Of a DNA stretch of 10,107 bases, positions 3,316 through 8,465 are shown piece after piece (positions within the stretch are counted from its first letter, which is position 1; each line of letters opens with the position of its first letter). The position numbers and the translations under genes were made by a program. Source of the stretch: an uncultured Spirochaetota bacterium (lineage in GTDB: Bacteria; Spirochaetota; Spirochaetia; SZUA-6; Fen-1364); the NCBI GenBank assembly GCA_963745235.1, contig CAVUXE010000050.1, positions 1 through 10,107 on the forward strand, given 5' to 3'. Below the pieces are notes generated by a model. It was given only the letters and a program-made list of their open reading frames with translations, had not been told where the DNA came from and did no database searches.

Positions 3316-3465
3316 AGATATAGAACCTGTGAGTGCGACGCTGTCGTCAAGAGTTGATCCTGGGGCTGCAGATCTCCCGTGAAGCTCGCTCCGGCCCACG
3401 CTCCAGGGAAAGCTCGGGGCTGCCCGCGGACCTTGGGGGTTGTGGATAGGCAAAGATGTCTCCCC

Positions 3466-3657
3466 AGCAATGGTCGCTCCGTCGCGCAGGGCTCCCTGGC
3501 GTGGATATGGGCCAGGAGCAACAGCACAATGCCGATACCCGGCTTTCGCAACGAAAAGCAAGTCATTGAAAACGTAAAAGCGATGGAGCTCGGGCCCCTG
3601 GAACGGCCGCAGATGACAGAAATTGAAGGCATCCTGTCATCGCTGCGACCGTCGTGA
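3466..3657 (+). pseudogene. C-terminal fragment of an aldo/keto reductase
   Basis: SNGRSVAQGSLAWIWARSNSTMPIPGFRNEKQVIENVKAMELGPLERPQMTEIEGIL* matches the AKR C-terminal pattern 'G.s.AQ.aLAW......PIPG.+...qv.EN..A....L....m.eI'. The upstream part of ORF 3379 shows no AKR character. Confidence 0.82.
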
Positions 3658-3687: not shown

Positions 3688-5484
3688 TCAATTCCCGGGC
3701 TGCTTCAGGATGGTCGTATCCTTTGGGGACGGAGCAGTCGCCTTTCGCGCGGGAGGCTGCGCGCCAGTCCCCGAGCGCCCTGCCGCAGGTGCGGCCTGCT
3801 GTCGAGGAGGCGGCTGGACGGGAGCCGTGACATGCCCGGGGGGTGTGGGACGCGCGGTGGCCGCCGCAGTCGTCTTTCGCACGGGAGGCTGTGCCACAGT
3901 CCCTGTGTGCCCTGCCGCGGGTGGGGTCTGCTGTCGAGGCATGGTGCTCAAAGACTGGCCTCCCTTTGCCTGCGCCTGAGGTGAGGCGGAAGCTTGTCCG
4001 ACAGCCTTCTTCGGGGTCAGGACAGTGACTTGCGGACGAACACCCTGAGAAGGTCGGTTCAGGTTGGACAACGTTGCCGCGTCAAGAGGCTGGCCGGGAT
4101 GAGCGGCAAAGGCCTGCTGACGCGCCGCGAACGGGACCGCCTGCGGCGGCGGATTCAGCCTGGCCACCACTGGCCGAGACAGCACAGAAGCAGGAGGCTG
4201 GGCAACTCTGCCGCCTGCGTTTCCAGCATTACCAAACAGACTCTGTTTCTGGGGGGCGAGCGGCGACACGGCTCCACGTACCGGAGCTCTCCCGAGATCA
4301 TCGGCTTGCACCCTGAGCGCAGCTCTCCCTGTCGGCTGGCCGTGCACAAAGGCGTCGTTCGACACAACGGTCATCGCACCAGGAACAGCCCGGTTGACGT
4401 AGGTAAAATGCTGGACATCGATATTGTGCATTCGTGTCTTATCGCTGCGGTACGGGGCGACATAGGGCTCATGCGGACCAAGAGGAAACCAGCCAACGGA
4501 GTCGCCCGGGGCCTGGTTGGGGCGCCAACCAGCGCCTCCAACGAATGTCACGAGCGCGGGCGAATAGACCAGGCGGCTCACGTGAGCCCCCGGCACCCAC
4601 ACCCAGGCGTTGCTGCGATATGCCCAGCGGCCATAGTGGAAAGGCGCAAAACCCCACGGGGCGTCGTCCACCCAGGTCCAGCCCCAGGGATCAACCCAGG
4701 CCCAGTGCCCGAAGCGGTACGGCGCCCAGCCTGCAACTGTCACCGTCGGCGCCCAGACGGGCCCCAGTGTCGGGTCGACTGTCCAGCTTCCATTCTGGTC
4801 GAGGTCTTCGACCCCATCGAGGTCCCGAGGCACGTACTGGGCTGAAGCGACGTGGTCCTCCTTCTGATCTCGTGCCTGGCACCACAGGTCCCAGTCGTCC
4901 AAGGGCGGCGCGCTCGTTATCTGATAGGTGGGAGAGTCGAGACCCGTGATGGCGGCTCTCTGCTGGAGGGACACGGGGAACACAGAGGTACCCGCGGTCA
5001 CTTCGACTTCGCCAGCGCGCACCGAGACGGCTGTGTCTCCGCTTTGCTGAACATCTATCCGATAGGTGCCCGCACGAAGAAGGGAAAGGCTTGCGTTGGG
5101 GGTGTCGACCTCTATCTGCTCGGTCGCGCCCAATTGACGAAGTCGCAGATCCAGTGACCCGGTCGAGAGACGTATCTGGATTGTCTGGTCATCCAGGTTC
5201 AGGAATGAAATGTCCGTATTCGCGGCAAGTCGAATAGCCGTGGAGCCTACATGGACCTCAGCCTGCCCGTTCTGGTCGGTCCATAGATTGTCCCCAATGG
5301 TCATGGGATAATTGAGGGTCGCCGGGGCCCAATCCTCGACGCTCTCCGGGTGATAGGAGACTGCCCCGCTTATGAAGTTCAAACGGCCGACGCGATTGGG
5401 AGGGTCGCCCCAAAGCGCGGAGACGCCGGCAAGCGTCCAGACGCAGAAAGCAACTGTGCAAAGCCTGATCGTGTTTGGCTTCAT
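3688..5484 (-). CDS. Secreted FecR-domain / DUF6600-type protein with a Pro/Ala/Gln-rich C-terminal tail
   Basis: SD GAGGT precedes ATG 5484 (598 aa). Signal peptide MKPNTIRLCTVAFCVWTLAGVSALWG, then 'DPPNRVGRLNFISGAVS'. FecR-like beta region ('GDNLWTDQNGQAEV', 'EVDTPNAS....RAGTYRIDV') and a Trp-rich block 'GWAPYRFGHWAWVDPWGWTWVDDAPWGFAPFHYGRW'. Confidence 0.88.
   Translation of the reverse strand: MKPNTIRLCTVAFCVWTLAGVSALWGDPPNRVGRLNFISGAVSYHPESVEDWAPATLNYPMTIGDNLWTDQNGQAEVHVGSTAIRLAANTDISFLNLDDQTIQIRLSTGSLDLRLRQLGATEQIEVDTPNASLSLLRAGTYRIDVQQSGDTAVSVRAGEVEVTAGTSVFPVSLQQRAAITGLDSPTYQITSAPPLDDWDLWCQARDQKEDHVASAQYVPRDLDGVEDLDQNGSWTVDPTLGPVWAPTVTVAGWAPYRFGHWAWVDPWGWTWVDDAPWGFAPFHYGRWAYRSNAWVWVPGAHVSRLVYSPALVTFVGGAGWRPNQAPGDSVGWFPLGPHEPYVAPYRSDKTRMHNIDVQHFTYVNRAVPGAMTVVSNDAFVHGQPTGRAALRVQADDLGRAPVRGAVSPLAPQKQSLFGNAGNAGGRVAQPPASVLSRPVVARLNPPPQAVPFAARQQAFAAHPGQPLDAATLSNLNRPSQGVRPQVTVLTPKKAVGQASASPQAQAKGGQSLSTMPRQQTPPAAGHTGTVAQPPVRKTTAAATARPTPPGHVTAPVQPPPRQQAAPAAGRSGTGAQPPARKATAPSPKDTTILKQPGN
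3734..3939. repeat. Intragenic direct repeat, two 74-bp copies (3734-3807 and 3866-3939)
   Basis: Manual alignment gives 63/74 identical, offset 132 nt (in frame). The copies encode PRQQTPPAAGHTGTVAQPPVRKTTA and PRQQAAPAAGRSGTGAQPPARKATA. Confidence 0.9.
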
Positions 5485-5624
5485 GGTGCTTACCTCTGTG
5501 CTCATCATAGTACCCTTGGCTTTCAATAACCATAGATGGGGGGTTACGGGGGTATAATTCTCAGTTATTTGAGGGAAACAGCATTGGACAGGGAGCTTTG
5601 AGACAGGCTGCCTGTCCGCTCCTC

Positions 5625-5666
5625 CTCCCCCGGACGGACTCGAACCAGCGACCGGGTCGTTAACAG
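5625..5666 (-). pseudogene. tRNA-Asn(GTT) 3'-half fragment, att-like site (copy A)
   Basis: The minus strand reads CTGTTAA (anticodon loop) CGACC CGGTC GCTGG TTCGAGT CCGTC CGGGGGA G, i.e. the tRNA layout from anticodon loop to discriminator. The T stem has two mismatches, there is no CCA, and the upstream sequence does not pair to form the anticodon or acceptor stem. Confidence 0.75.
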
Positions 5667-5814
5667 TGCTGTCGGTGCAACTGATCGAAGGCTCAATCCG
5701 TTTCTTGTGGCCCAGGAGAATGAACCAGCAAAACTGTGACACCACTCATGTGCCGATGCGTGTCCACTTCGCGCTCGTGGCTTTCCTAATCCGCGGTCGG
5801 TGATCCGCCGGTTC

Positions 5815-6152
5815 TCACGGTTTCCCAAGAAGCAACTTCAGCGAGCGGTGAAGCTCTGGGATCTCTTCCGTCACAGTTTTCCAGACAACATCCGAATCGA
5901 TGTCGAAGTATCCATGGATCAATCTATTCCGCATTCCGATAATCGATATCCAAGGAATCCCCGGCGAAGTCGCCTTTGTCGCGTCAGCTACTTTGCTGGC
6001 CGCCTCTCCTATCACCTCGATCGCCCGCACGATGGCGAAGAGAAGCATCCGATCCGTATCAAGGTCCTCACGCTTTTTTCCGGTTGCGAATTGCTCGACG
6101 ATTCTGCAGCATCCACCATGTGCAGAATGCGAATACGATCATCACCGCGCAT
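5815..6152 (-). pseudogene. hepT: HepT-like HEPN ribonuclease toxin (DUF86 type), frameshifted
   Basis: ATG 6152 overlaps the MNT stop and gives MRGDDRIRILHMVDAAE. One base is missing at about 6100, and the next frame continues VEQFATGKKREDLDTDRMLLFAIVRAIEVIGEAASKV...IPWISIIGMRNRLIHGYFDID, with the R-X4-H-X-Y motif. The repaired protein is 112 aa. Confidence 0.88.
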
Positions 6153-6444
6153 ACTGGACTTGAGCGGATCGAATCACTTCATCCCTGAAATAGCGGCTCA
6201 GGTCGTTTGGGGTTCGCAAGTCAACGGTCCGCCCACCGAGAATAGTTGACAACTCATGTTCCATATCAGCCAGACCAAGGAGGCCTGGCTCCTTCCCACG
6301 GTCGAACTCCACGAGAAGGTCAATGTCACTTTCCGGATTGGCATGACCCTTAAGCTGAGATCCGAACAGCGAGAGGCGTCGGATACCATGCTTCTGGCAG
6401 AATGCTCCCAGGGGGGCTTTTTTGCTCTCGAGAAATCTGTTCAC
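6142..6444 (-). CDS. mntA: Minimal nucleotidyltransferase (MNT) antitoxin
   Basis: 100 aa, GTG start. 'LSLFGSQLKGHANPESDIDLLVEF' carries the GS-X10-DXD motif, followed by 'GRTVDLRT'. It lies directly upstream of, and overlaps, the HEPN gene. Confidence 0.93.
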   Translation of the reverse strand: MNRFLESKKAPLGAFCQKHGIRRLSLFGSQLKGHANPESDIDLLVEFDRGKEPGLLGLADMEHELSTILGGRTVDLRTPNDLSRYFRDEVIRSAQVQYAR

Positions 6445-6507
6445 CTTCGGTTCTCTATCCTCACTGCTGCGTGCACTCTCAGGCGTGGTTCCTGCCTCAG
6501 ACTATCA

Positions 6508-6642
6508 GAAATCCGGCGGCTCTGGAAGCTTGCGCAGTCCGTTGGGAGGAACGGTCAAAGAGGCCCGGAGGGGAACTGCCCGGCCTTCAAGCCTCCCTTC
6601 GACATCATCCACAGGATCGCCCAGAAAGCAAAACAGGCAGCC
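6508..6642 (+). pseudogene. Possible degraded C-terminal tail of a large serine recombinase
   Basis: Across frames: EIRRLWKLAQS ... GGEL/PAFKPPFDIIHRIAQKAKQAA. This resembles, from recall, the 'EKRrLl..v.SN....G.L...f+.PFD.l' tail of tRNA-associated serine recombinases, and it abuts a tRNA fragment. Confidence 0.4.
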
Positions 6643-6658
6643 AGCGACCTGCCGACTG

Positions 6659-6691
6659 CTGTTAACGACCCGGTCGCTGGTTCGCCAGCCG
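6659..6691 (+). pseudogene. tRNA-Asn(GTT) 3'-half fragment, att-like site (copy B), inverted relative to copy A
   Basis: CTGTTAA CGACC CGGTC GCTGG TTCG CCAGC CG: the T stem GCTGG/CCAGC is intact but 3 nt are missing from the T loop. 6659-6684 is the exact reverse complement of 5641-5666. Confidence 0.72.
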
Positions 6692-6850
6692 CTCAGGTGC
6701 GCTGAAAGCTTCAGCATCCGAGGCGACCAGGAAAGACTCACACGGATTGGACGTGTACCGTTGGTCTTCGATCACCTGAACCACCAACTCGTGAAAAACA
6801 GCGCTGAGCAGGCGGCGAACGGCATGATGCGGCAATACCGCGCCGGCGGG

Positions 6851-6951
6851 CTCTCCCTGCGAAACCTTGTAGTCCAGGATCGCCAGCCCCTGCTTTTCTC
6901 CGCCTTCATTTCCAGGATGACGCCGGCGCGCCCGGAAAGCAGTCCGTCCGA
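6851..6951 (-). pseudogene. Fragment of a PD-(D/E)XK nuclease domain (type found C-terminal to UvrD/AddAB-like helicases)
   Basis: Joining two minus frames across a 1-nt deletion at about 6911 gives SDGLLSGRAGVIL(D/E)NEGGEKQGLAILDYKVSQGE, matching 'sGraD.i.......l.IlDYK'. The catalytic Asp position reads Gly (GGC). Confidence 0.55.
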
Positions 6952-7085
6952 GTGAGATCGTCGGTCGAAGGCCAAACGGCAGGCAAGTATCAAACGGCAA
7001 GGAGAGCAGGTATTTCCTCGACCTTGTGCTGGTAGCAGAAGGTTCTTAAGCTCGTCCAATAGAGGGAGCTGGTCCATGCGACCCG

Positions 7086-8465
7086 TCAGGCCGGGGCTGC
7101 GATCCTTTCCACCAGGCTGATGCTCATCCATTTTCCCCTCCGATGCCGCAGGAACATGGACAGGCACAGGGAGAAAACGAAGGCAATGAAGAAAAGCCAC
7201 ACGAGGACGGGCGGGAGCACCAGGACCTTGATGAACAGGAATGCCCCGCAGGCCATGACCCAGTGCAGGATACCGGAGACCATCATGACCCAGCGCGTGT
7301 CCCCCGCTCCCCGCAAGGCGCCGCTGAAGACGACGTTGGCCGCGTCCGCAAGCGTGTAGAGAGCAGCCATCCTGAGCAGCGTCTGCGCGATCGGAAGGAT
7401 GGACTGGTCCTGCGTGGTGAAGCCTCCCGCGAAGAACCGGACCAGGACCGGCGCTCCCACCACGAACACGATCCCGACCAGGGCCGCATACGCCCACCCG
7501 AGCCTCAATCCGAGGAAGGCCACCTTGCGCGCACCCTGCGCGTCGCCGGCTCCCATCCTGTGTCCCACCAGGGCAGTCGTTGCCGCCCCAATGCCGAGCA
7601 TGGGAATGAATGATACCAGGTCGTAGTTGAACGTGATGGTCACGGCCGTTGCCACCTGCGTGCTGTAGGACTGCATGAGCATCACGAAAGCGTTGAAAGC
7701 GAAGACGTTGATGAACATCTCTGCTCCCGCGGGGAGGCCGTATTTCAAGAGCTTCCTGAGAAGGTCTCCCCGCGGCGTCCACGCCGAGATGGCCCGCGAA
7801 CGCCGCCTGTACCCGGGGCTCCGCAGGTAGGAGACAAGCAGGATGCTGACGATGAAGGCGGACCCCCCGAGGGTGCCGAGCGCCGCGCCCTGAATGCCCA
7901 GCCGCGGGAATCCCAGCTTCCCGAACACGAGGCACCAGTTGAGAGGAAGGTTCACGAGGATCCCCAGAAGGTTTGCCGTCATCACGACCCGGGTCTTTCC
8001 AAGACCGACGAAGTAGCCCACGAGGACGCTCTGCAGCATGAAGATGAAGGATCCGAGCATGAGGATGCGGTAGTAGGAAAACTCCAGCGCCACCTGGTGC
8101 GGGCTGTGCCCCGCCCAGATGAAAAGACGATGCCCCGCGGGGATGAGGAGAAGCAGCAGGGGATAGAACCCGAGGGTCAGCCAGAATCCCTGGGACGCGA
8201 CCTGGATGCAGCGTTCTTCCCGCTGGGCGCCGTGGTACTGAGCCACCAGGGCGTTCACATACCCGGTGATCCCCGTGAAGAAAGACGTGAACACAAAGGA
8301 GGTGAGCCCGCCGCTCATGGAGGCCGGGATATGATCCGCGCCGAGAAATGAAACGACCCAGCGGTTGAAGAACAGCATCAGCGTCTCTGATGCCTGGGAG
8401 ACGACCATGGGGGCGGCGATAGCGAACATGTGTCCGAGAGTGATCTCAGATCGGGCATTTTTCAT
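7086..8465 (-). CDS. MATE family efflux transporter
   Basis: 459 aa with about 12 hydrophobic segments and the MATE repeat motifs 'LVAQYHGA', 'GLGKTRVVM', 'FGKLGFPRLGIQGAALGT', 'LVGHRMGAGD', 'GALRGAGDTR'. Confidence 0.96.
   Translation of the reverse strand: MKNARSEITLGHMFAIAAPMVVSQASETLMLFFNRWVVSFLGADHIPASMSGGLTSFVFTSFFTGITGYVNALVAQYHGAQREERCIQVASQGFWLTLGFYPLLLLLIPAGHRLFIWAGHSPHQVALEFSYYRILMLGSFIFMLQSVLVGYFVGLGKTRVVMTANLLGILVNLPLNWCLVFGKLGFPRLGIQGAALGTLGGSAFIVSILLVSYLRSPGYRRRSRAISAWTPRGDLLRKLLKYGLPAGAEMFINVFAFNAFVMLMQSYSTQVATAVTITFNYDLVSFIPMLGIGAATTALVGHRMGAGDAQGARKVAFLGLRLGWAYAALVGIVFVVGAPVLVRFFAGGFTTQDQSILPIAQTLLRMAALYTLADAANVVFSGALRGAGDTRWVMMVSGILHWVMACGAFLFIKVLVLPPVLVWLFFIAFVFSLCLSMFLRHRRGKWMSISLVERIAAPA

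Follow-up and report, generated by a model that had tools for sequence, protein, structure and literature searches.

The inverted repeat and the genes it encloses

The window analysed here is the whole 10,107-bp contig C50 of the spirochaete-labelled metagenome-assembled genome (MAG) G000, which is 85.7% complete with 5.9% contamination. It carries a toxin–antitoxin (TA) pair, made up of an MntA-like nucleotidyltransferase (MNT) and a HEPN RNase (HepT), enclosed by two inverted copies of a 26-nt sequence that stems from the 3′ half of a tRNA-Asn gene (Table 1). The copies, at 5641-5666 and 6659-6684, are 100% complementary and 992 nt apart; by a rough estimate, the chance of a perfect pair of 26-mers in 10 kb is about 1e-8. 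An initial interpretation made from the letters alone, hereafter the sequence-only reading, had noticed the perfect repeat, its tRNA-Asn origin and the start of the match in the anticodon loop of both copies. On all these points it was right, as both copies begin at C32 of the loop.

In the window itself, ARAGORN finds zero tRNAs, and an Rfam scan (E up to 10) returns just three chance-level matches, the tRNA model not being among them. The genome has a single tRNA-Asn(GTT), at C57:3160-3233, and the left copy corresponds to positions 32-73 of this gene (42 nt, 90% identity). The 26-mer itself departs from this gene at 3 of 26 bases, all located in the 3′ strand of the anticodon stem and in the variable loop. 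The right copy aligns to the host gene over positions 31-57 only. After GGTTCG it continues as CCAGCCGCTCAGG, which can be aligned, in five relatives, with the stretch of a recombinase tail gene (orfX) that encodes a helix-turn-helix. The sequence-only reading had treated the two copies as differently damaged halves that could be merged into one clean 3′ half with CCAGC in the T stem. That reconstruction has to be given up: since the right copy past position 57 is orfX sequence, the CCAGC strand is an artefact; as the true 3′ strand of the T stem, the host tRNA has CCGGC and the left copy CCGTC. Among the sampled organisms, no tRNA-Asn has the sequence of the window's 26-mer. Its exact 25-mer has one other carrier among species-representative genomes, a contig of the sister genome G001, and in a table of 32 units the G001 copy is the nearest to the right copy (1 base different, all others at least 2).

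Only MNT and HepT lie between the two arms, as had been claimed for this stretch of about 1 kb, but the pair is not intact. Because one base is missing at 6099/6100, as seen by alignment to the intact 112-aa HepT of G001, HepT is left with a 77-aa open reading frame (ORF) covering HepT profile positions 27-118, in which the RNRLIH motif is still present. Judged by this alignment, the HepT of the window is a pseudogene, unless the lost base is an assembly error. The MNT protein has the GS...DxD motif (LFGSQLKG...SDIDLLVEF). A scan for sigma-70 promoters found none in 5450-7150. The type VII MntA-HepT system (PMC7641770) is alike in its overlapping genes for an MNT nucleotidyltransferase and a HEPN RNase and in its GS..DxD and Rx4H motifs. 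The pair studied here is unlike it in that neither protein reaches its NCBIfam equivalog cut-off (36 bits for the G001 HepT, with a cut-off of 60) and in that the toxin gene of the window is frameshifted.

Table 1. Features of the window between the two flanking gene blocks.
Feature	Position	Strand	Basis or comparison
"Type A" flank that follows the left tRNA piece and contains hairpin GGACAGGCAGCCTGTC	5560..5624	-	Similar flanks after the intact tRNA-Asn in G014 (L016 6403-6443) and after a piece in G002
Frame open across the tRNA piece (antisense to it) and the arm, APPPPDGLEPATGSLTVLSVQLIEGSIRFLW...ALVAFLIRGR*	5618..5800	+	Translation
Left tRNA piece, a tRNA-Asn 3′ half (positions 32-73) that includes the left repeat arm, 5641-5666	5625..5666	-	Anticodon-stem/variable part CGACCCGGTC, host CCACTAGGTC
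Conserved "arm" between HepT stop and tRNA piece, motif TCGATCAG	5667..5814	-	Arm-like motif (loose) upstream of 22/32 units; exact CTCGATCA in 14/32
Pseudogene of HepT (HEPN RNase toxin), lacking 1 nt between 6099 and 6100	5815..6152	-	Pfam HepT-like, E 5.8e-21 (77-aa remnant)
MNT (MntA-like nucleotidyltransferase antitoxin), intact	6142..6444	-	Pfam NTP_transf_2 (PF01909), E 2e-13; NCBIfam MntA_antitoxin, 47.4 bits, cut-off 60
Hairpin terminator ahead of the MNT promoter region, belonging in the usual arrangement to the preceding tRNA piece	6637..6659	-	Terminator scan; homologous "type A" flanks after tRNA pieces in relatives
Right arm of the repeat, 26-nt stub of tRNA-Asn positions 32-57, same as left copy	6659..6684	+	Crossed by X3 record 18 (6319-6691)
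Large serine recombinase gene, fragment of the C-terminal tail (from the second half of the helix-turn-helix to ..MMRQYRAGGLSLR)	6685..6880	+	Alignment to 5 relatives
Leader part of a recombinase tail unit, convergent with the preceding fragment	6881..6940	-	Collinear with relatives by eye; junction near 6880 bridged in contigs of 3 runs
Degenerate tRNA-Asn 3′-end remnant AGTCCGTCCGAGTGAG, positions 58-73	6941..6956	+	88% complementary to 5625-5640; CCGTC variant as in left copy
rep80, multi-copy 80-nt unit with tRNA-like GGGAGC end	6990..7069 (about; up to 7077)	+	Found many times in the genus, frequently next to tRNA-Asn pieces

Cassettes between tRNA-Asn pieces in related genomes

The T-arm/acceptor pattern of tRNA-Asn is multi-copy in 11 of the 92 genomes of the order, 10 of them belonging to the family of the window. 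The pieces in this family come as a boundary unit, composed of the conserved upstream arm, the 3′ half of tRNA-Asn and a downstream terminator of its own. The sister genome has the same cassette as the window (G001:C257, 93-96% nucleotide identity), there with an intact HepT, one tRNA piece on the HepT side, no right arm and a direct rep80 copy on either flank. MNT-HepT followed by a tRNA piece recurs in G022 and G023 at 71-81% nucleotide identity. Elsewhere the units form arrays: G019:C92 has seven tRNA-Asn pieces, all on the minus strand and, but for one of the six intervals, spaced about 700-900 bp apart, and in G014:C4 further pieces come after the intact tRNA-Asn. On the eight contigs of relatives with at least two copies, all 24 copies are in direct orientation.

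The cargo between the pieces is diverse. It includes DUF433+DUF5615/PIN_10, BrnT+BrnA, HicB-like, ParE, HigB-like and MNT+HepT-like_2 cassettes; katG+Fur and a sugar ABC-transporter block occur as well. The search of relatives for different cargo that the sequence-only reading had called for thus turned up many other cassettes, both TA and non-TA, bounded by the same tRNA pieces. Many of the cassettes hold TA pairs, and the katG-fur and sugar-transporter cassettes are bounded in the same way.

This diversity also bears on the idea that the tRNA halves act as RNA, being co-transcribed with the TA operon to serve the HEPN RNase as substrate or decoy, or to act as a processing signal. The left piece does share the strand of HepT, which it follows after 150 nt, and precedes a hairpin, a layout found in three relatives, and conservation of the pieces is higher in the T arm and acceptor part than at positions 40-46. 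Yet the same pieces bound non-HEPN cassettes (DUF433/PIN-like, BrnT/BrnA, HicB-like, ParE, HigB-like) and non-TA genes, BrnT/BrnA is oriented opposite to its pieces, the conservation pattern fits an attachment core, and HepT is broken here. A functional tRNA-like RNA, and with it the HEPN-specific decoy or substrate suggested earlier, is accordingly the least probable of the explanations considered.

The direct orientation of the related copies is hard to bring into line with an invertible cassette, in which the 26-bp arms would be DNA invertase sites, or substrates of homologous recombination, flipping the TA module. Such a cassette would explain a perfect inverted repeat around one operon, and, by our own reading, either orientation would place the arm side of the cassette beside position 32 of a tRNA piece. 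On the other hand, the window encodes no invertase, and the right arm lacks all family-conserved parts except the 26 nt and is absent from the sister genome, whose cassette has just one piece. Flipping would leave the linkage of promoter and genes unchanged because the promoter region lies inside the segment. Contigs of four public runs hold neither an inversion joint nor a loose end with the flipped junction; this is weak evidence, since contigs drop rare forms. Altogether, we consider inversion of the cassette very unlikely.

Two observations concern rep80, which often accompanies the pieces. Its minus strand encodes ..LPLLDEL..IEEIPALLAV*, with a 1-nt insertion in the window copy, and by eye the changes between copies of this small frame (..LPLLDELRTYCYEHKIEEIPALLAV*) look mostly synonymous (window; L005 51-122 and 1202-1280; L017 18627-18705). 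In G014:C4 (L016 7766-15280), two direct rep80 copies enclose a 7.4-kb block as if it were a large cassette; it contains a sugar ABC transporter, a histidine kinase, an AraC-type regulator and a fucosidase.

A large serine recombinase split at the genome's own tRNA-Asn gene

The tail fragments to the right of the repeat come from the type of large serine recombinase of which one body resides at the host tRNA-Asn gene itself. G000:C57:1621-3192 encodes a 523-aa protein with Resolvase, Recombinase and Zn_ribbon_recom domains that ends (..FSFAPPAGLEPAT*) within the tRNA-Asn gene on the opposite strand, at the tRNA's TAG (C57:1621-3233 with the tRNA gene, locus L067 1501-3113). This protein shares 94% identity with the first 516 residues of P0043 (662 aa), which past ..FAFAPP runs into the tail known as orfX in relatives and present as fragments in the window. 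An intact orfX copy (L014) encodes 123 aa, which contain a helix-turn-helix and match one half of the Pfam Recombinase domain (24.7 bits, cut-off 21.1); its product is 70% identical to the C-terminal part of P0043 (residues 540-662). The layout of C57 is repeated in G024:C121. Among 22 metagenome loci, the body adjoins an intact tRNA-Asn in six and a tRNA piece in two, and body and tail are contiguous in four; contiguous forms are P0043, L080, L089, L093 and L097. The forms L080 and L081/L082 have the same body and part directly after GCTCCCCCG, which is the acceptor stem. As the split forms diverge at one core, the attachment core lies inside the recombinase gene, which is therefore split on integration. 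In L017 and L069, rep80 sits between recombinase body and tail; the latter locus (G015:C10, 2454-3499) additionally has an insertion sequence, with two ORFs that we take to be a helix-turn-helix protein and a transposase, breaking rep80 inside the recombinase gene.

Tyrosine integrases gave 48 family-scan matches in G000, none of them on C50, on C57 or beside the arrays looked at. Four relatives have 6-27 such matches, so the count may be a pointer to a genome unusually rich in mobile elements.

In the window, two tail fragments converge, one at 6685-6880 (+) and the other at 6881-7077 (-), the latter with the degenerate tRNA end and rep80. The stretch 6917-6940 may represent diverged tRNA positions 40-57, which would make 6941-6956 part of a separate old piece. 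We also considered that 6941-6956 could be the continuation of the right copy, separated from it by a 256-bp insert.

Against this background, the right 26-mer looks quite different from the left one. The left piece, with its arm and hairpin, is built like the other boundary units, in keeping with the earlier view of the repeats as tRNA-Asn-derived attachment-site relics of integrative elements. The right copy lacks both the conserved arm and the T-loop/acceptor part; it is a stub and not a second attachment site. Its inner side adjoins the terminator hairpin 6637-6659. The same hairpin occurs in three canonical copies (G001, G014 and G000:C98), where 13 bp and then an oppositely oriented tRNA-like end follow. 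At this inner junction, the sequence is ..CCGACTGC(C/T)TGTCCA.. in the canonical copies and ..CCGACTGCTGTTAAC in the window, the inner flank of the left arm being CCGACAGCACTGTTAAC. At the outer junction, the tail gene has TCGCCTGGTTGGCG|CCAGCC where the arm has TCGCTGGTTCG. The likeness of both junctions to the flanks of the left arm is short and imperfect only. Most likely, the stub arose when illegitimate recombination or a template switch copied the left arm. The inverted repeat probably has no function of itself.

Could a site-specific recombinase have made the inversion directly, by joining attachment sites in the wrong orientation through a symmetric core, either the GTTAAC of the anticodon loop or the TCGA of the T loop? 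Serine and tyrosine recombinases are known to lose polarity with symmetric cores, which counts in favour of this possibility, as does the fact that the stub both starts (32) and ends (57) at palindromic tetra- or hexamers. However, the serine-recombinase crossover maps here to the acceptor stem (GCTCCCCCG) and to neither of these positions, the event would give intact-looking hybrid sites rather than a 26-nt stub fused to a coding fragment, and every other copy is direct. We therefore regard it as improbable. The related notion that the end of the stub at position 57 marks a serine-recombinase crossover was rejected for the same reason, namely, that the divergence point lies in the acceptor stem.

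Whether the arm-bearing units, too, derive from serine-recombinase elements is a separate issue. In all 10 units of one alignment, the frame that runs antisense to the tRNA piece and through the arm is open, with the consensus ..APPAGLEPATG.LT....LIEDTI.F...LALVA.A*. By our own count, CTAGG at tRNA positions 42-46 is found in 5 of 5 native-like units and in 0 of about 19 arm-bearing units, which mostly have CCCGG; because CTAGG is replaced by such variants, the antisense TAG stop is gone in the arm-bearing pieces. The open arm frame combined with the stop-removing variant may point to a second type of recombinase tail.

Origin of the locus and its place among mobile systems

The MatE-B3_4-EamA block (about 7100 onward) is collinear in five genomes of the same genus, and its left neighbour there matches G000:C10; the FecR/DUF6600 gene on the other side has other neighbours in G006. 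With neighbours changed on both flanks, the island lies at a synteny breakpoint. Of the earlier proposals, two decayed islands back to back comes close to this context, since a synteny breakpoint is combined with oppositely oriented relic units. Two further observations were made on the left flank: the 3′ part of the FecR/DUF6600 gene has two 81-nt direct repeats (3727-3939; 83% identity, 132-bp spacing) that encode a repeated proline/alanine-rich stretch, and a 92-aa ORF at 3379-3657, matching the last 55 positions of an aldo/keto reductase profile only, is probably a gene fragment.

A breakpoint of this kind raises the suspicion that C50 is chimeric, having been joined through short repeats so that the inverted pair would not lie on one molecule. 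The contig is short, the MAG is contaminated to the extent given above, synteny is broken on both flanks, public contigs end close to either arm, and run X2 holds a variant strain that has different DNA, rep80 in place of the left piece, beside FecR. Still, a chimeric join at a shared word yields one copy of the word and not two. Moreover, X3 record 18 (6319-6691) runs across the right arm, X1 record 4 corresponds to 5639-6011, and the junction at about 6880 is bridged in three runs. Parts of the window are also found, mostly as small shares, in 20 listed rows of public runs from 11 studies with soil, peat, freshwater sediment and bioreactor labels; stretches lacking cover in the contigs of the four public runs prove nothing. 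Three public runs have an extra G after 6910, and the window may therefore hold a 1-nt error or variant at this position. An assembly artefact seems to us as unlikely as an invertible cassette.

Taken together, the anatomy of the locus, its family context and the recombinase split at the genome's own tRNA-Asn, which our analysis establishes, lead us to assign a probability of about two in three to the following explanation: the locus, which lies where synteny breaks, is the decayed far end of integrative elements targeting tRNA-Asn, and illegitimate recombination left the inverted stub as a scar. Decayed ends of elements that target the tRNA-Asn gene would then make up the patch between about 5485 and 7090. 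Such elements would pile up successively in this bacterial family. Each would leave its adjacent cargo and a boundary unit, which consists of the conserved arm, a tRNA-Asn 3′ half starting at position 32/33 and a terminator of its own. The cargo would often be a TA pair, presumably persisting because its loss is penalised. In at least one element type, the driving enzyme would be a large serine recombinase that has the attachment core, located in the tRNA acceptor stem, within its reading frame; integration would consequently cut the gene, the body staying at the tRNA and the tail at the far end. Arm-type units may likewise have come from serine-recombinase elements. In the window, MNT-HepT would be surviving cargo whose toxin has since been frameshifted, the left tRNA half and arm would be a normal cassette boundary, and the right 26-mer would be a stub with the upstream terminator of the cassette on one side and a recombinase-tail fragment on the other, each joined to it where homology is short and imperfect.

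Several findings weigh against this explanation. Some concern the recombinase: no recombinase gene was found in the window (11 ORFs scanned) or beside the arrays examined, the window having tail fragments only, and its tail fragment is only 59.5% identical to P0043 (tblastn of residues 592-633), and is therefore not the partner of the C57 recombinase. For the arm frame, no long gene could be identified as its carrier: across 25 family genomes, all but three of its 35 matches lie in open frames of at most 153 aa, and these exceptions (frames of 376, 536 and 551 aa) are weak (E 6e-4 to 6e-3), two having internal stops and the third being a truncated recombinase body. A search limited to longer proteins did not find the arm frame, and a search of its profile against 1.84 billion proteins gave 38 matches, all small save two weak and partial ones that we take as spurious. 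An hhalign comparison of this profile with P0043 was negative, and the differences in the frame by codon position (577/529/678) amount to a weak third-position excess among units that had been picked for open frames. As to the stub, its start exactly at position 32 is explained just by a 2-4-nt exact overlap and nearby imperfect likeness, no public contig bridges 5564-5638, and the junction 6684/6685 is crossed by 7 nt only. Finally, the HepT frameshift has no independent confirmation by public contigs; a variant contig of X2 has an extra base at the frameshift site and one base fewer 35 nt away.

The same evidence could also be taken as a sign of ongoing cassette capture, similar to that of integrons, in which units of arm, tRNA-Asn half and terminator are working recombination sites at the tRNA-Asn of this spirochaete-labelled lineage. 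Self-splitting serine recombinases would then stack and reshuffle sub-kb, mostly TA cassettes, and the inverted stub would be an occasional wrong-orientation event. Integron arrays and integrase-less attC clusters indeed share small promoter-poor or TA-bearing cassettes, a conserved recombination site and, often, the lack of a recombinase nearby. They are unlike the arrays described here in that the boundary here is a tRNA half plus arm and not an attC hairpin. We treat this possibility as tentative and rather unlikely.

If the locus is indeed a patch of decayed element ends, its closest parallels are found among islands at tRNA genes. As described for Islander (PMC4383910), these islands are alike in having a tRNA-derived repeat at the element ends, an element-borne tRNA 3′ part and tandem arrays. 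Here, by contrast, most units have no integrase, arrays reach seven pieces with sub-kb cassettes, the one recombinase identified is a serine and not a tyrosine enzyme, and the pair in the window is inverted. Islander lists only four tandems of at least three among 3919 islands, with an integrase required for each island. Set beside such islands, the window has no intact tRNA gene, its pieces are inverted and not direct, and its 11 scanned ORFs include no integrase. A second parallel is offered by the CIMEs (cis-mobilizable elements), described in Firmicutes for elements related to integrative conjugative and integrative mobilizable elements (ICEs and IMEs), with tyrosine or DDE enzymes (PMC5704250). 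They are decayed elements that have kept their att sites, have lost the integration genes and are stacked by later att-site integrations, much as proposed here; the units of the window's family are unlike them in being about 1 kb long, TA-rich and located at the tRNA-Asn of a spirochaete-labelled MAG lineage. As for the split gene, the "suicidal" tyrosine integrases of the SSV type in archaea (PMC7253208) likewise have the site inside the integrase frame and are split on integration, whereas the large serine recombinase described here is bacterial and its gene is interrupted about 145 codons ahead of the stop. Our literature search found no description of self-splitting bacterial serine recombinases, nor of serine recombinases at tRNA-Asn. 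We therefore view the context of the window as a moderately novel variant of tRNA-linked element accretion.

Were this account of the family true, the tRNA-Asn gene of these soil and peat bacteria would host long stacks of tiny TA cassettes derived from self-cutting serine-recombinase elements. This would explain why TA pairs cluster beside tRNA scars, and it would provide natural pairs of attachment site and recombinase to test.

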